The translations under genes were made by a program, and so were the position numbers. DNA of 15,551 bases, from the IMG/VR virus record IMGVR_UViG_2675903575_000009, positions 1 through 15,551 of that record. One strand, 5' to 3'. How positions within the stretch are numbered: position 1 is the first letter of the stretch; each line of letters opens with the position of its first letter. Origin of the DNA: a virus. Lineage: Duplodnaviria; Heunggongvirae; Uroviricota; Caudoviricetes. The notes beneath the pieces were generated by a model. The model had not been told where the DNA came from and did not search any database. It saw only the letters and a list, made by a program, of their open reading frames with translations. Shown one piece after another: positions 2,159 through 11,010 of the stretch.

Positions 2159-2728
2159 TTACCTAACGTACTTAATTGTTAAACTTATAATTTTTCCAAT
2201 TATTTCAACATCTTCTATCTTGCACTCGAAGGCTCTGTTTCCACCTTCAACGAAGATTCTTCCACCGGGTAAACGAGTAATGTCGCGGATTGTTATTTCG
2301 CCATCAATACTTATTACCCATTTACCATCACGTATATCATCAAATTCTTTATCACAAATAAATTCAGAATTGTTATCTGTGATGACAAAAGGTTTTTTAA
2401 ACGTAGAGGGTAGAAATCCCTTATCAAAAATATAAAAACCGTCTTCACGCAAGGCACCATCAGATAATACATATTTAGCAACTTCCATCGTATTTGTATT
2501 ACCTGAAGTTTGCTTTGAACCATGTCCAGTTGTGAGCCAATTAAGCGAGGTGCCCGTTTCAAGGGCGCACTGGATTACCCATTCTGCTGGGAATGAGTCA
2601 CGCATGTAGCGTGTAGCGAGTGTACTTTTAGAGATTCCTAAATGATCGCACAACGCCTGTCGAGTTTTGAATCCATAAGCTTCTACCATGCGCTCTATAG
2701 CGCCTCGTCCGCCTTTCTCCAAATTCAT
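2159..2728 (-). CDS. cI: Phage CI-type immunity repressor (186 CI-like, HTH N-terminal domain)
   Basis: About 190 aa, the size I recall for 186 CI rather than the roughly 99-aa P2 C; N-terminal HTH-like segment KTRQALCDHLGISKSTLATRYMR; divergent from the cox/apl-like early operon. Start taken as ATG 2726-2728 (GGAG 5 nt upstream); the ORF track begins two codons earlier at a GTG. Confidence 0.8.
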   Translation of the reverse strand: MNLEKGGRGAIERMVEAYGFKTRQALCDHLGISKSTLATRYMRDSFPAEWVIQCALETGTSLNWLTTGHGSKQTSGNTNTMEVAKYVLSDGALREDGFYIFDKGFLPSTFKKPFVITDNNSEFICDKEFDDIRDGKWVISIDGEITIRDITRLPGGRIFVEGGNRAFECKIEDVEIIGKIISLTIKYVR

Positions 2729-2752
2729 GGTCACTCCAAGTGAACTTTTATC

Positions 2753-4658: not shown

Positions 4659-5512
4659 GCACCATCCTGAAATGGGCGGGAAATAAAACCGCCATTATGT
4701 CCGAACTGAAAAAACACCTTCCTGCTGGCCCGCGACTGGTTGAACCTTTCGCGGGTTCCTGTGCTGTGATGATGGAGACGGATTACCCCAGCTATCTGGT
4801 TGCGGATATTAATCCTGATTTAATCAACCTCTATAAAAAGGTTGCCGCTGATTGTGAATCGTTTATATCTCGCGCCAGAGTTTTATTTGAGATCGCAAAC
4901 AGGGAGGTGGCTTATTACAACATAAGGCAGGAGTTTAATTACTCCACTGAAATTACTGATTTCATGAAAGCGGTATATTTCCTGTATCTCAATCGTCACG
5001 GTTACCGTGGTTTATGTCGCTATAACAAGAGCGGGCATTTCAACATTCCCTACGGTAATTATAAAAATCCGTATTTCCCTGAAAAAGAAATTCGCGCATT
5101 TGCAGAAAAAGCCCAGCGGGCAACGTTTATCTGCGCCAGCTTTGATGAAACGCTGGCGATGTTGAAGGCGGGGGATGTGGTGTATTGCGATCCGCCGTAT
5201 GACGGCACGTTTTCCGGTTATCACACTGACGGCTTCACTGAAGATGACCAGTATCACCTGGCATCCGTTCTTGAACATCGGTCATCAGAAGGACATCCGG
5301 TCATTGTTTCTAACAGTGACACATCCCTGATCCGTTCGCTGTATCGCAATTTTACTCACCACTACATCAAGGCAAAACGCAACATCGGTGTGGCAGCTGG
5401 CGAGGGTAAATCAGCAACAGAAATCATTGCTGTTTCCGGGCCGCGCTGCTGGGTGGGATTTGATTATTCGCGTGGCGTGGACAGTTCTGCCGTGTACGGA
5501 GTACGTGCATGA
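4655..5512 (+). CDS. dam: DNA N6-adenine methyltransferase (Dam family), phage-encoded orphan MTase
   Basis: N-terminus [11 protein letters not shown] and FAGSCAV (AdoMet-binding motif I region) plus catalytic DPPY ([10 protein letters not shown]) are Dam-family hallmarks; GGAGG RBS at 4644-4648; ATGA overlap with upstream and downstream genes. The ORF track start at 4595 is an unlikely 5' extension. Confidence 0.9.
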
Positions 5513-7923
5513 GTCATGCCGATATGAACAACTGCTGCGGCTTTAACGAGGCTGCCGCAGCATTCTCATGGAACAGCCCGAAAAAGGCCATTAACCCTTA
5601 TCTGGACCCGGCGGAAGTTGCGCCGGTTTCTGCGCTTTCAAACCTGATCACTCTGTACGCTGCCGATAACGAGCAGGAACAACTGCGCCGCGAGGCACTG
5701 AGTGATCAGGTCTGGGAGCGTTATTTCTTTAATGAATCCCGTGATCCTGTCCAGCGCGAAATGGAGCAGGATAAGCTAATTAGCCGGGCAAAGCTGGCGC
5801 ATGAGCAGCAGCGTTTTAATCCAGACATGGTCATTCTGGCGGATGTCAACGCCCAGCCTTCCCATATCAGCAAGCCGCTGATGCAACGTATTAAATACTT
5901 CAGCAACCTGGGCAGGCCAAAGGCTTATTCCCGCTATTTGCGTGAGACGATTAAGCCATGCCTGGAACGACTGGAGCATGTACGCGACAGCCAGCTATCT
6001 GCATCTTTTCGTTTTATGGCAAGCCATGAAGGGCTGGACGGTCTGCTGATCCTGCCTGAAATGAGTCAGGATCAGGTGAAACGCCTGTCCACCCTTGTCG
6101 CTGCGCATATGAGCATGTGTCTTGATGCCGCTTGTGGTGATTTGTACGCCTCCGATGATGTTAAGCCGGAAGAAATCCGCAAGACATGGGAAAAGGTGGC
6201 AGCAGAAACCCTGCGACTGGATGTCATACCGCCTGCGTTTGAGCAACTCCGCCGGAAAAGAAACCGCCGCAAACCTGTGCCCTATGAACTCATTCCGGGT
6301 TCGCTGGCGCGTATGCTGTGCGCCGACTGGTGGTATCGGAAATTATGGAAGATGCGTTGCGAATGGCGGGAAGAGCAGTTGCGTGCTGTCTGTCTGGTCA
6401 GCAAAAAAGCATCTCCCTATGTCAGCTATGAAGCCGTGATGCATAAACGTGAGCAGCGCCGTAAGTCGCTGGAGTTTTTCCGTTCTCATGAACTGGTGAA
6501 CGAAGACGGCGACACGCTGGACATGGAGGATGTGGTAAACGCCAGCAGCAGCAACCCTGCGCATCGCCGCAATGAGATGATGGCCTGTGTTAAAGGCCTG
6601 GAGCTTATCGCGGAAATGCGCGGTGACTGCGCCGTTTTCTACACCATCACCTGTCCGTCACGTTTCCATTCCACGCTAAATAACGGCAGGCCCAACCCGA
6701 CCTGGACAAATGCGACGGTAAGACAAAGCAGTGATTATCTGGTTGGCATGTTTGCTGCATTTCGTAAGGCGATGCACAAAGCCGGATTGCGCTGGTATGG
6801 CGTGCGGGTGGCTGAGCCGCATCATGACGGTACAGTTCACTGGCACCTGTTGTGTTTTATGCGCAAAAAAGATCGCCGCGCCATTACTGCTTTGTTGCGT
6901 AAGTTTGCCATTCGTGAAGACCGCGAGGAGCTGGGGAATAACACGGGACCACGCTTTAAGTCTGAGTTGATTAACCCGCGCAAAGGAACGCCGACAAGCT
7001 ACATCGCGAAATATATCAGTAAGAACATTGACGGGCGTGGTCTGGCTGGCGAGATCAGCAAGGAAACGGGTAAATCCCTGCGTGATAACGCTGAATACGT
7101 GAATGCCTGGGCGTCTCTGCATCGTGTTCAGCAATTTCGCTTCTTTGGCATTCCGGGGCGTCAGGCTTACCGTGAACTGCGATTGCTGGCTGGTCAGGCG
7201 GCAAGGCAACAGGGTGACAAAAAAGCAGGTGCGCCGGTACTGGATAACCCGCGGCTTGATGCAATCCTGGCTGCTGCTGATGCTGGTTGTTTTGCCACCT
7301 ACATCATGAAGCAGGGCGGCGTACTGGTTCCCCGTAAATATCACCTCATCAGAACTGCTTATGAAATCAACGAAGAGCCGACCGCCTATGGCGATCACGG
7401 CATTCGTATTTATGGCATCTGGTCACCTATTGCAGAGGGCAAGATCTGCACTCATGCCGTGAAGTGGAAAATGGTTCGTAAGGCCGTTGACGTTCAGGAG
7501 GCGGCAGCCGACCAGGGCGCTTGCGCCCCTTGGACTCGTGGCAATAACTGTCCCCTTGCTGAAAATTTGTACCAACAAGGGAAAGACAAATCAGCTGATG
7601 GAGATACCAGAACGGATATCACCCGCATGGATGACAAGGAGTTGCACGATTACCTGCACAGTATGAGCAAAAAAGAGCGCCGGGAACTGGCAGTAAGGTT
7701 ACGCCTGGTGAAACCGAAACGGCGTAAAGACTACAAACAGCGAATTACAGACCATCAGCGACTGCAGCTCGTGTATGAACTGAAGTCCAGGGGATTTGAT
7801 GGCAGCGAGAAAGAGGTCGATTTACTCCTTCGCGGCGGCAGTATTCCGTCAGGAGCAGGCCTGCGTATCTTCTATCGGAACCAGCGTTTGCAGGAAGATG
7901 ATAAGTGGCGAAACCTGTATTAA
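5509..7923 (+). CDS. A: Replication initiation endonuclease (P2 gpA / 186 A-type rolling-circle initiator)
   Basis: 804 aa; [11 protein letters not shown] metal-binding motif and paired-tyrosine active site YIAKYISK (YxxKY) typical of P2 A-family nickases; canonical position after the early genes. Confidence 0.9.
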
Positions 7924-8015
7924 TTACGCGGGTTAACAATTCGTGCTCTTAATAATACCAGGCATATCAGGCTGATGAGCGTAAAAAAACGTTTTACATC
8001 AGTAAGATTATTATA

Positions 8016-8035
8016 TACTGTAAATATAAACAGTG
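8016..8035. promoter_or_regulatory. LexA (SOS) box upstream of the tum/dinI-like module
   Basis: TACTGTAAATATAAACAGTG is a perfect CTGT-N8-ACAG with AT-rich spacer, about 40 nt upstream of ATG 8076, overlapping promoter-like hexamers (TTTACA 7993-7998, TATACT 8014-8019). Confidence 0.6.
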
Positions 8036-8075
8036 GTTATGTATACAGTATTGCTTTGGTGTCATAGGAGGAAAG

Positions 8076-8264
8076 ATGCAGGACTATTTTTTGGAGTCTT
8101 TGAAGCTCCAGCGCATTGATTTTTTTCTTAAGCTTGTAGCGGCTAGTGAGTGTAGTGATGAAGAGAAGGGGCTGGCTCTGCAGTGGGTTTCTGAACTGAC
8201 AGATGAACTCATGGCAAAAATCAGAACCCACGAATACAACCGCTCAATGGATGTCATCAGCTGA
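8076..8264 (+). CDS. Hypothetical 62-aa protein, first gene of the LexA-controlled module (possible Tum N-terminal-equivalent)
   Basis: Perfect AGGAGG RBS 6-7 nt upstream of the ATG; directly downstream of the LexA box; stop 10 nt before the DinI-like start. Confidence 0.55.
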   Translation: MQDYFLESLKLQRIDFFLKLVAASECSDEEKGLALQWVSELTDELMAKIRTHEYNRSMDVIS

Positions 8265-8274
8265 GGTGACTTTT

Positions 8275-8508
8275 ATGCGCATTGAAATAATGATCGATAA
8301 AGAGCAGAAGATTAGCCAGTCTACACTGGACGCCCTTGAATCCGAGCTTTACCGCAATCTGCGCCCCCTGTATCCCAAAACGGTAATTCGTATCCGCAAA
8401 GGTAGCTCTAACGGTGTGGAACTTATCGGATTGCAACTGGACGAAGAAAGAAAACAAGTGATGAAAATTATGCAGAAGGTGTGGGAAGACGACAGCTGGC
8501 TGCATTAA
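8275..8508 (+). CDS. DinI-family protein (186 Tum C-terminal-like / DinI-like)
   Basis: 77 aa; MRIEIMIDKEQKISQSTLDALESEL...IMQKVWEDDSWL parallels E. coli DinI (MRIEVTIAK...ETWESADDWF) in length and conserved ends; GAGGTGA RBS 5 nt upstream. The ORF track start at 8203 is a 5' extension in the same frame. Confidence 0.8.
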   Translation: MRIEIMIDKEQKISQSTLDALESELYRNLRPLYPKTVIRIRKGSSNGVELIGLQLDEERKQVMKIMQKVWEDDSWLH

Positions 8509-8719
8509 GAAACGTTGCTGGCGTCTGAACCTGCTTCTGGCGTCAGCAAGGTTGAACCGCGAGCCTTGAGAGGCGTTAACCATAAGTAAAAAGACAGTAA
8601 TCACTTGATTATCTATCAGGGCGAGACCTATGCTGCACTTTTAGTTATAACTCATAATGTATTGAAATTATTATAATATATGTCATTCTTAAAATGTGTA
8701 TGCTTATCAAGGAGCAAGA

Positions 8720-9592
8720 ATGAAACGTGGCATTGTAGCTAATCCTAATGAAATGAGTTTTCATAGAAATAATAGTACGGTCTATCTTGGGGCAGGTTTA
8801 ACTGAGCAGGATATTAATTATTTCTGCTTTTACTGGGATGATGTGGTTATTCTAGATAGTGAAAATATTCACTCGATTGTGCCTAAAGAAAAAGAATTAT
8901 TAGATAATGGGGTATTACGTAGACCTATTATGAAACATGATGGGATGCTGAATATCCAAGACTTTCCATTTTTATATACGGAATTTCAGTTGCAGACATT
9001 GGATGAATTCAGGAAGAACGAGCCTGCTACTTATTGGCACTTTCATCAAACAGGGGAAAATTTAATATATGATAAAGAACAGAAAACGGCCCTTCAGTTG
9101 AGATTGGAGTTGTTTAATGTTCTGAGAATTCCTGATAAAGATGCTCATATAGAAGATATATTACGTTTTAAAGATGATTGTCAGGATGATCTTAATGCGT
9201 TACATGAGTACTTAGAAAAACTGTATACTGAAGTCCTTTATTCTAGAGACCCTAATCTAACGAGGGCTAAAAATTTTTCTTTATTACAAGAGGCTGTAGT
9301 TAATCTTGATAAAGCTATCGAAGGGAAATGGAGAAATCCTATCAGAATGGGAGTCAAAGCCAATCCAGAAGTAGATGGTGGGCAGGTTCTGGAATTTTTA
9401 AAACCGTTGTACCATGCTGCTATTGCTGGTTATTCAGGCGGTATTATTCCCGGTATGGTTACAGCCTTGGCAACCGCAATTCCAAGTTTTATAAAATTCC
9501 AACCAGAATGGGTGGGCTTTAGAGATAAGGGGCCTAAAGAATTAGCTTATCTTACCAAAGCAACGCATAAGGGGTTGATTAAGAGAGCTTAA
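8720..9592 (+). CDS. Hypothetical AT-rich accessory protein (290 aa) with a C-terminal hydrophobic segment; candidate anti-phage or abortive-infection gene
   Basis: ORF 8696..9592; preferred start ATG 8720 with GGAG about 6 nt upstream. Strongly AT-rich against the GC-richer phage backbone; no family recognised by eye; C-terminal AAIAGYSGGIIPGMVTALATAIPSFI looks like a membrane helix. Location between A/tum and cos corresponds to the P2 tin/old accessory locus. Confidence 0.6.
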   Translation: MKRGIVANPNEMSFHRNNSTVYLGAGLTEQDINYFCFYWDDVVILDSENIHSIVPKEKELLDNGVLRRPIMKHDGMLNIQDFPFLYTEFQLQTLDEFRKNEPATYWHFHQTGENLIYDKEQKTALQLRLELFNVLRIPDKDAHIEDILRFKDDCQDDLNALHEYLEKLYTEVLYSRDPNLTRAKNFSLLQEAVVNLDKAIEGKWRNPIRMGVKANPEVDGGQVLEFLKPLYHAAIAGYSGGIIPGMVTALATAIPSFIKFQPEWVGFRDKGPKELAYLTKATHKGLIKRA

Positions 9593-9693
9593 GACATTTT
9601 AATCGATTTTCGCAACTATATTCCTTCGTAACCACACAAGTGCATGACTATGCCGCATGAATCCGCATGATCGTTTGAGGATCGTTTTAGCTG

Positions 9694-9723
9694 AGGCCCG
9701 CTAGGAATGGCGGGCCTTTGCTT
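9694..9723 (+). terminator. Rho-independent terminator-like hairpin downstream of the 290-aa gene
   Basis: Perfect 8-bp inverted repeat AGGCCCGC / GCGGGCCT (9694-9701 and 9710-9717) with an 8-nt loop, followed by TTGCTT. Confidence 0.5.
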
Positions 9724-9764
9724 ATGTCATGCAGGCGCATGAAAACCACTACATAAAGCGGGCA

Positions 9765-9783
9765 GGCGTGGCGGGGATACGAG
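9765..9783. other. Candidate cos (cohesive-end) site of the phage
   Basis: GGCGTGGCGGGGATACGAG: the first 13 nt match the G-rich start of the 19-nt P2/186 cohesive end as I remember it (GGCG[A/T]GGCGGGGA...); it lies where cos is expected, between the A-side accessory genes and the portal gene Q. Match is from memory and the 3' part diverges. Confidence 0.4.
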
Positions 9784-9807
9784 CGCGCGCTTAAGGATAA
9801 ATTGAAG

Positions 9808-9836
9808 TTGATTTAATTTTTCGACATGGATAATCT
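9808..9836 (+). promoter_or_regulatory. Candidate sigma70 promoter for the 353-aa cargo gene
   Basis: TTGATT (9808-9813), 17-nt spacer, TAATCT (9831-9836), about 70 nt upstream of ATG 9910. Confidence 0.3.
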
Positions 9837-9909
9837 TAACTACGTATGATTATTGATAAAAAATAAACATAAACAATTGTAGCGGATCTTAAAACTTATT
9901 AGGATTAGT

Positions 9910-10971
9910 ATGCTTAAAACAAATAAGGTATTTATTGACACACAAACGTACGTAAAGGCTGGTCTTCATTTTGAGGGGGTAGCATTTAAAGCTTTCCATG
10001 AATTATGTGCGAAAGGTGATTTAGTCTTAATTACAACTACAGTTGTAGAGAGAGAAGTAAAAGGTAAAATAGAGGAATCAATAAAGGATGCTCTGCAGGC
10101 TATAAACACAGTACAAAGAAAAGCTAGGCTTTTGAATAGTATTGATAATGGACCGCTCCATGGTTTTTTTCAGCAATTTAACGAACATGAAATTCACGAA
10201 GCAGCACAAAAAGTTTTTGATGATTTTTTGAAAGGATGTCACGCCAAATTAGCTACAATAGAAGTGATAGATCTTAATGAGGTTTTAGATAAATACTTTG
10301 GCAAAGAACCACCATTTGGGCAAAATAAGAAAAAAAGTGAGTTTCCTGATGCAATCAATTTAGCTGCGGTAGAGCGATTTGTTAATGATGAAGATGTGTA
10401 TATCATTTCTGAGGATAGTGACTTAAAAAATTATTGTGATGGTAAAAACAATCTTCATCAAATTGATTCACTTGATAAGTTTCTAGGTGAATACAATACG
10501 CATACAAACGAATTAAGTAATAAATTGATGCAGTTTATCGAAAGCAAACGTGAAGACATAAGAGCGGACGTAATTGCCCAACTCAATGATGCCGATGGAT
10601 ATAACGTTTCAACTTGGGAAGACGCTGAATTGGATTCATTTGAAGTCGTCAATATTGATGACTTTGAACCATCAATAATTAAGATTGACAATAATTATTG
10701 TCTAGCGACCTTCTCTGTTTCTGTAGATTTTGAAGTTACTGTTTCTGGTCCAGACTTTAATAATGGGTATTGGGATAGCGAAGATAAAGTAATGATTCCA
10801 ATGGAGACAACCACACGAACTGAAGTTCAAGAGATTAGTTTCGATATTGAAATTGAAGTTATGTATGAAATCGAGGATGGTGAATTAACAGATATCGCAT
10901 TTGATGTGAATATTGATAAGTTATCCCGAGGGATTGAGTTCTCTATTGAAGAAAATAATTTTGAATATTAA
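9910..10971 (+). CDS. Hypothetical AT-rich accessory protein (353 aa): possible PIN-like nuclease N-terminal domain plus highly acidic C-terminal domain; candidate anti-phage defence gene
   Basis: AGGA RBS 5 nt upstream of the ATG. The N-terminal ~175 aa have acidic residues spaced like PIN-domain metal ligands (VFIDTQ with D10; TTTVVEREV; FPDAINLAAVE; YIISEDSDL). The C-terminal ~150 aa are very D/E-rich with beta-like stretches. Strongly AT-rich; lies between cos and Q, where P2 has no gene. Confidence 0.6.
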   Translation: MLKTNKVFIDTQTYVKAGLHFEGVAFKAFHELCAKGDLVLITTTVVEREVKGKIEESIKDALQAINTVQRKARLLNSIDNGPLHGFFQQFNEHEIHEAAQKVFDDFLKGCHAKLATIEVIDLNEVLDKYFGKEPPFGQNKKKSEFPDAINLAAVERFVNDEDVYIISEDSDLKNYCDGKNNLHQIDSLDKFLGEYNTHTNELSNKLMQFIESKREDIRADVIAQLNDADGYNVSTWEDAELDSFEVVNIDDFEPSIIKIDNNYCLATFSVSVDFEVTVSGPDFNNGYWDSEDKVMIPMETTTRTEVQEISFDIEIEVMYEIEDGELTDIAFDVNIDKLSRGIEFSIEENNFEY

Positions 10972-10980
10972 TTCGTTCAT

Positions 10981-11010
10981 AACGGCATCATTGTGATGCC
11001 GTTGGGTTTT
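10981..11010 (+). terminator. Rho-independent terminator hairpin shared by the convergent cargo gene and Q
   Basis: Perfect 10-bp inverted repeat AACGGCATCA-ttg-TGATGCCGTT (10981-11003) followed by GGGTTTT; abuts the Q stop codon (11009-11011). Confidence 0.6.

Follow-up and report, generated by a model that had tools for sequence, protein, structure and literature searches.

The locus that lies between replication gene A and the cargo genes of the prophage considered here is very probably a LexA-repressed SOS operon of two genes, tumA and tumB, belonging to a Fels-2-like member of the P2/186 family. The tumA-tumB arrangement is conserved and under purifying selection, its two genes are separately initiated and have a Shine-Dalgarno sequence each, and the split and fused architectures of this regulator are each stable within their own lineage.

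Tum is the LexA-controlled anti-CI factor of phage 186 (PMC7708051) and, as the work of Shearwin et al. (1998) is summarised in PMC3121763 and PMC7708051, it binds CI, blocks operator binding and is needed for SOS induction. The division of tum into two genes is already known, as both Fels-2 and PSP3 have been described as carrying a split tum in which the upstream gene of PSP3 is the antirepressor (Lemire et al., 2011; PMC3121763); for Fels-2 that paper cites Bunny et al. (2002), and for the PSP3 antirepressor it cites a personal communication. The present analysis makes a small addition to this knowledge, namely that the second gene of the Fels-2 type is out of frame with the first and not behind an in-frame stop, a difference which the comparative data show to be immaterial.

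The original prediction described a Tum-like module split across two reading frames and offered three explanations for the split: a genuine bicistronic arrangement, a frameshift mutation or sequencing error, or programmed frameshifting. The first of these holds, but the other two are contradicted by the reading frames and stop codons of related loci and by the existence of identical copies in independent genomes, as described below.

Layout and control region of the locus

The window, by which is meant the whole 15,551-nucleotide stretch of DNA that was analysed, is a P2/186-family prophage that is most like Fels-2 and carries an integrase, a methyltransferase and a replication gene A (5509-7923). 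The gene for its CI repressor is flanked by Apl/Cox-like and CII genes; the CII product is 69% identical to 186 CII, and the CI proteins of the window and of 186 are 32% identical (residues 13-185, E 8e-38). The tumA gene is the first behind the LexA box and directly follows gene A, an order (gene A, LexA box, tumA) that is common to 186, PSP3, Fels-2 and 31 of 33 related loci. After tumA and tumB come a low-GC cargo island and then the portal and terminase genes (Table 1).

Table 1. Features of the tumA-tumB locus, its control region and associated genes in the window
Feature	Position	Strand	Description
186-type CI immunity repressor	2159..2734	-	Pfam Phage_CI_repr + Phage_CI_C; presumed TumA target
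Putative sigma-70 promoter (p95 equivalent)	7993..8019	+	-35 TTTACA 7993-7998, -10 TATACT 8014-8019, 15-nt spacer
LexA (SOS) box CTGTAAATATAAACAG	8018..8033	+	Overlaps the -10 region
tumA Shine-Dalgarno AGGAGG	8066..8071	+	Read from sequence
tumA (ORF1)	8076..8264	+	62 aa, ATG start; predicted antirepressor, Fels-2 STM2728 family (phrog_698)
tumB Shine-Dalgarno GAGGTG	8263..8268	+	Read from sequence; overlaps the tumA stop TGA 8262-8264
tumB (ORF2)	8275..8508	+	77 aa, DinI-like; homologous to PSP3 TumB and to the 186 Tum C-terminal half
DUF6236 ORF	8696-9592		298 aa; cargo island
PIN_12-domain ORF	9910-10971		353 aa; cargo island

The LexA box is the sole match to CTGT-N8-ACAG in the 15.5-kb window, where 0.14 matches would be expected by chance, and 31 of the 33 related loci have a CTG-N10-CAG box ahead of tumA. 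A LexA-type box is also present upstream in 186, ENT90, ESSI-2, Yersinia phages and PSP3, and the 186 record annotates the equivalent site as the LexA site of p95. Most of the 33 related loci keep the TTTACA and TATACT hexamers ahead of tumA, and we infer by analogy with 186 p95 that these hexamers form a putative promoter. A strict consensus promoter scan called no promoter at 7993-8019 because of the length of the spacer; an alternative -10 element for an SOS promoter, TACTGT at 8016-8021, would give a 17-nt spacer. At the start of tumA, the pattern ATAGGAGG(G/A)AA(A/G)ATG is kept in relatives.

Directly after the canonical box there is also a second, degenerate LexA-like box, GTGGTTATGTATACAG (GTG-N10-CAG, 8033-8048). 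Most relatives keep its ATACAGT half in the corresponding position, a hint of a tandem operator.

The coordinates, frames and sizes that had been reported for the 62-aa ORF and for the DinI-like ORF agree with the ORF finder and the sequence. The frame of ORF2, which is +1 relative to that of ORF1 (199 mod 3 = 1), is open from an ATG at 8203 to 8508 and would encode 101 aa from this first ATG. The original prediction therefore spoke of two ORFs that overlap at 8203-8264; the frames do overlap there, but the genes do not, with tumB starting at the ATG at 8275. What appears as an overlap is ORF1 facing 24 non-coding codons that lie upstream of tumB in the ORF2 frame. The codon equivalent to ATG 8275 marks where the DinI homology, the match to DinI structure 1GHH, PSP3 TumB and the part of 186 Tum that aligns begin, and it also corresponds to the internal GTG start that is annotated in 186 tum. 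The ATG at 8203 is an ACG in many relatives, and the 24 open codons upstream of 8275 are not above chance expectation (about 0.3 by the estimate (61/64)^24).

The tumB Shine-Dalgarno sequence stands 6 nt from the tumB ATG, within a region in which a 10-nt spacer follows the tumA stop. A fused, 186-type Tum would have both modules in one frame with no stop between them, whereas here the TGA at 8262-8264, this spacer and the +1 frame of the second module lie between the two.

Kinship of the two products to 186 Tum

TumB matches Pfam DinI (PF06183) at E 9.3e-23, with 80.8 bits against a cut-off of 24.2 and with residues 14-76 covering profile positions 1-63 of 63, and its residues 1-75 match the 1GHH structure at E 4.9e-7. 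The protein is 41% identical to residues 71-145 of 186 Tum and 78% identical to PSP3 TumB over 77/77 residues. Its score against the chromosomal DinI equivalog of NCBIfam, NF007893, is 45.5 bits and falls below the 111-bit cut-off, so TumB is a phage DinI-like paralogue (TumB type) and not an orthologue of host DinI.

Profile comparison relates the 62-aa ORF, as a remote homologue, to the N-terminal half of 186 Tum. Since pairwise BLASTP finds no similarity between ORF1 and either 186 Tum or the 60-aa PSP3 TumA, this homology rests on profiles and on intermediate sequences. Profile searches matched ORF1 to phrog_698 over its full length (E 3.6e-38), to phrog_8554 (E 2.4e-8) and to phrog_1993 (E 2.2e-3), and residues 1-69 of 186 Tum matched the same families (phrog_1993 at 1.9e-23, phrog_8554 at 3.2e-12 and phrog_698 at 6.4e-6), in every case in the same register over residues 7-44. 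An hhalign comparison of the ORF1 family with the Tum N-terminal family, for both of which the profiles are thin, placed positions 4-43 on 4-43 with a P of 8.7e-4. The alignment of the 62-aa ORF to the Tum N-terminal region, which the original prediction had put forward as a check, is thus provided by reciprocal, in-register profile matches.

Intermediate sequences point in the same direction. When either ORF1 or the Tum N-terminal region was used as a tblastn query, the same short gene was found in several Yersinia enterocolitica phages; the stand-alone proteins of ENT90 and ESSI-2 were found by one query each and are linked through shared PHROG families. Together, the stand-alone proteins of ENT90, YenM_324, 06.16-2, ESSI-2 and ev015 link the ORF1 and Tum N-terminal families in graded steps; their genes all lie immediately downstream of gene A with a LexA box in front, and the proteins align without gaps over residues 1-45. 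ORF1 and the 186 Tum N-terminal module are about 15-20% identical and have in common a motif that can be written approximately as (E/Q)R(I/V)x(hydrophobic)3(R/K)(L/M)xAxxxCxxx(D/E)(R/K)xxA(L/I)xW/L(I/V)(A/S)E(L/I).

The AlphaFold2 model of ORF1 is a helical hairpin (H2-23 and H28-61, pLDDT 89), for which a Foldseek search of the PDB returned generic helical hairpins only (best E 1.2), and Pfam, NCBIfam, PADLOC and PDB sequence searches with ORF1 found no family. These results, like the negative pairwise BLAST comparisons, could indicate that the 62-aa ORF encodes a small, unrelated phage protein and only by chance precedes a dinI-like gene, with a Tum-type antirepressor either absent or encoded elsewhere. 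This explanation is unlikely in light of the reciprocal profile matches, of the continuous series of intermediates that fill the same slot downstream of gene A with a LexA box in front, and of the third of relatives that retain tumA without a dinI-like gene. The last observation shows tumA to be the selected, LexA-controlled unit. The searchable literature contained no experiment on the Fels-2-type 62-aa protein, and literature searches on tumA/tumB and on the CI domain targeted by Tum returned nothing relevant.

In a protein database search with residues 1-69 of 186 Tum, almost all of the best 120 matches were short (63-117 aa), and several of them are named 'Tum protein' by NCBI. Full-length, 146-aa Tum was absent among these best 120 matches yet is dominant in the IMG/VR loci, which may be an effect of database ranking or clustering.

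The locus can be placed next to several known systems. In Fels-2, STM2728 (62 aa) is 98.4% identical to the 62-aa protein of the window, and the genes succeed one another as in the window: gpA, the 62-aa gene, a 10-nt gap, a 77-aa DinI-like gene (STM2726.1, which the Fels-2 record assigns to the DinI family and likens to PSP3 TumB) and cargo. The two differ by few substitutions and in their downstream cargo, which in the window consists of the DUF6236 and PIN_12 ORFs. PSP3 likewise has a two-gene tumA/tumB after gene A and behind a LexA box, and its record describes tumA as 'similar to 5' end 186 tum; UV induction of prophage' and tumB, of 77 aa, as 'similar to dinI and 3' end of 186 tum'. Unlike the window, PSP3 has a 3-nt spacer and a tumB in the same frame, so that its genes are split by an in-frame stop, and its CI (286 aa) is about 34% identical to that of the window. 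Gifsy-1, -2 and -3 (gfoA, gftA) also have a LexA-controlled operon that contains a dinI homologue and a small antirepressor gene (PMC3121763). Unlike the window, these lambdoid phages have dinI placed first and unrelated repressors, and their likeness to it concerns gene content and LexA control.

Phage 186 itself has the same two modules in the same order and genomic position and the same LexA-controlled promoter logic. In contrast to the window, its modules form one ORF of 146 aa, and 78 of 80 close 186-type relatives are fused at this length. The 186 record also annotates an internal GTG start, giving a truncated Tum product, which aligns with TumB Met1 and is preceded by AAGGAGG (4275-4295 in L001, the tum locus of phage 186). 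This internal start is consistent with fusion from a bicistronic ancestor. Because it lies where tumB starts, a free DinI-like protein can be produced under either architecture, and the outputs of the split and fused forms may be more alike than their layouts suggest.

One gene or two across related loci

The arrangement was compared across 33 homologous loci from 33 bacterial species, including members of the genera Escherichia, Citrobacter, Enterobacter, Klebsiella, Serratia, Pantoea, Erwinia and Tatumella, plus others. ORF1 is 62 codons long in 30 of these 33 species-level loci. A separate DinI-like ORF follows it in 21 of them, after a spacer of 8, 9, 10, 11 or 12 nt, which means that ORF2 can be in relative frame 0, +1 or +2, and nearly all of the relatives that bear tumB have a G-rich, Shine-Dalgarno-like motif in the spacer. 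The remaining 12 loci contain tumA without a DinI-like ORF, and unrelated cargo genes then directly follow it.

The loci listed as having tumA alone, about a third, are L012, L016, L022, L026, L030-L037 and L039; in L037 the tumA ORF is itself truncated, to only 20 codons. Truncated tumB ORFs, of 26-60 codons, are found in L011, L021 and L038.

A single +1 shift within 8203-8261 would give a product of about 143 aa by arithmetic, in keeping with the figure of about 144 aa that had been proposed, and the length of about 146 aa that had been given for 186 Tum proved to be exactly 146 aa. This similarity in size is the reason to consider that a fused, 186-type tum was broken in 8203-8264 by a 1-nt frameshift mutation or a sequencing error. 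However, four independent complete E. coli genomes contain a 751-nt segment of this sequence with 100% identity, 1125 of 5426 genomes have related copies of lower identity, and NCBI PGAP annotates two genes at the E. coli copies. In addition, the 62-aa length of ORF1 is kept across species, and Fels-2 and PSP3 are split likewise.

The pattern of substitution also argues that the end of ORF1 is maintained as protein. The pairwise nucleotide differences at ORF1 codon positions 1/2/3 number 3332/1801/9877 overall and 1798/1336/3818 within the overlap, the third-position bias persists up to the ORF1 stop, and the C-terminal tail (..AKIRxHEYxRSMxV..) is kept. Amino-acid identity is 75% in the ORF1 frame; the other two frames reach 48% and 45%. 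The peptide encoded by 8203-8274 in the +1 frame contains stops in most relatives and, from a reading of the translations, is unlike the 186 Tum linker. The identical copies in independent genomes, the conserved 62-aa length and the bias at codon position 3 together exclude a frameshift mutation or sequencing error, an explanation to which we assign a negligible probability.

A larger sample of close relatives is provided by 80 IMG/VR loci, which are the best protein matches to TumA and contain 19 tumA DNA alleles. Among these prophages, which encode an identical TumA protein, 78 of 80 have the same 10-nt spacer; the all-synonymous pattern among the 19 alleles is partly an ascertainment effect and does not constitute independent evidence.

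A related possibility is that a programmed +1 ribosomal frameshift in the overlap adds a fused TumA-TumB protein beside the two separate products. The window has an open +1 frame between 8203 and 8275, tRNA-Lys could slip +1 on GCA AAA A at 8214-8220 (with its A-AAA-A run at 8216-8220), and a fused protein is functional in phage 186. Against this, the relative frame of tumB varies among 0, +1 and +2 with its spacers of 8-12 nt, the +1 frame of two near relatives (L009 and L010) closes 3 nt short of the tumB ATG, and a third of loci have no DinI gene. The +1 frame inside the overlap contains at least one stop in 25 of the 29 relatives that have a 62-codon ORF1, and the lower amino-acid identity of this frame (48%, as against 75% in the ORF1 frame) also tells against its translation. 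The check for slippery heptamers in the overlap that the original prediction had suggested came back empty save for the A5 run at 8216-8220, at which there is no stimulator and no stop or rare codon in the A site, and the sole hairpin nearby is no more stable than shuffled sequence (z = -0.69). The variable relative frame, the stops in the +1 frame and the loci that lack a DinI gene exclude conserved programmed frameshifting, and the likelihood of a programmed shift at this locus is very slight.

The hairpin just mentioned (8253-8270) extends from the tumA stop to the tumB Shine-Dalgarno sequence and had been flagged as terminator-like. It was rejected as a coupling or frameshift device, as it is also unconserved.

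The original prediction named two things that would tell against a split Tum module: consistent encoding of two separate genes by related prophages and a 62-aa ORF dissimilar to the Tum N-terminus. Related prophages do encode two genes, but the 62-aa ORF does resemble the N-terminus of Tum.

CI pairing, cargo genes and significance

The cargo island, at 8600-11000, has a low GC content (32-39%) and lies between tumB and the portal gene, a position that in P2-like phages is known as a variable defence-gene hotspot. The DUF6236 ORF is absent from 80 of 80 close IMG/VR relatives in a search made with that ORF alone, and PADLOC models gave no match for either ORF. The two ORFs may represent a candidate defence pair that is as yet uncharacterised.

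Comparison of the prophages that share the TumA protein of the window provides information on its presumed target. Across the 80 IMG/VR prophages with a 100% identical TumA (L043-L122), CI is 38-99% identical to that of the window. At the same loci the N-terminal helix-turn-helix (HTH) domain of CI is 59-99% identical to that of the window CI, and the C-terminal oligomerisation domain reaches just 25-41% identity at about half of these loci; over CI residues 21-60 the window residue is matched in 83-86% of alleles per column. Some of the identical TumA proteins adjoin CI alleles that are only 38-55% identical to that of the window, a pairing that would be unexpected if TumA were narrowly allele-specific. 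Across the wider family, TumA proteins of the 186, PSP3 and Fels-2 types pair with three CI types whose mutual identity is about 32-34%, while TumB stays at 41-78%. Therefore, it is possible, if somewhat doubtful, that Fels-2-type TumA acts as a broad-range antirepressor which would recognise the conserved N-terminal HTH domain of CI and not an allele-specific surface.

The two-gene operon would be expected to work as follows. DNA damage would lead to cleavage of LexA and to firing of the promoter at about 7993-8021, as suggested by the conserved box and by 186 p95. TumA would then bind the 186-type CI repressor and stop its binding to operators, leading to prophage induction, a role predicted from its homology to the N-terminal half of Tum and from the assignment of the upstream gene of PSP3. 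TumB, translated from its own Shine-Dalgarno sequence, would bind RecA filaments and modulate the SOS response, functions that are inferred from its membership in the DinI family.

Beyond correct annotation the importance of these findings is slight. A 62-aa 'hypothetical protein' encoded by about one fifth of complete E. coli genomes is best regarded as the TumA-type antirepressor of Fels-2-like prophages, and the tumA/tumB locus should be marked neither as a pseudogene nor as a recoding site. In addition, Tum offers a clean case of domain fusion and fission among phage regulators, in which tumA alone, tumA plus tumB and a fused tum are all represented. Finally, the pairing of one TumA with many CI alleles could bear on cross-induction: if TumA does have a broad range, a single TumA could cross-induce co-resident P2-like prophages that carry different CI alleles.
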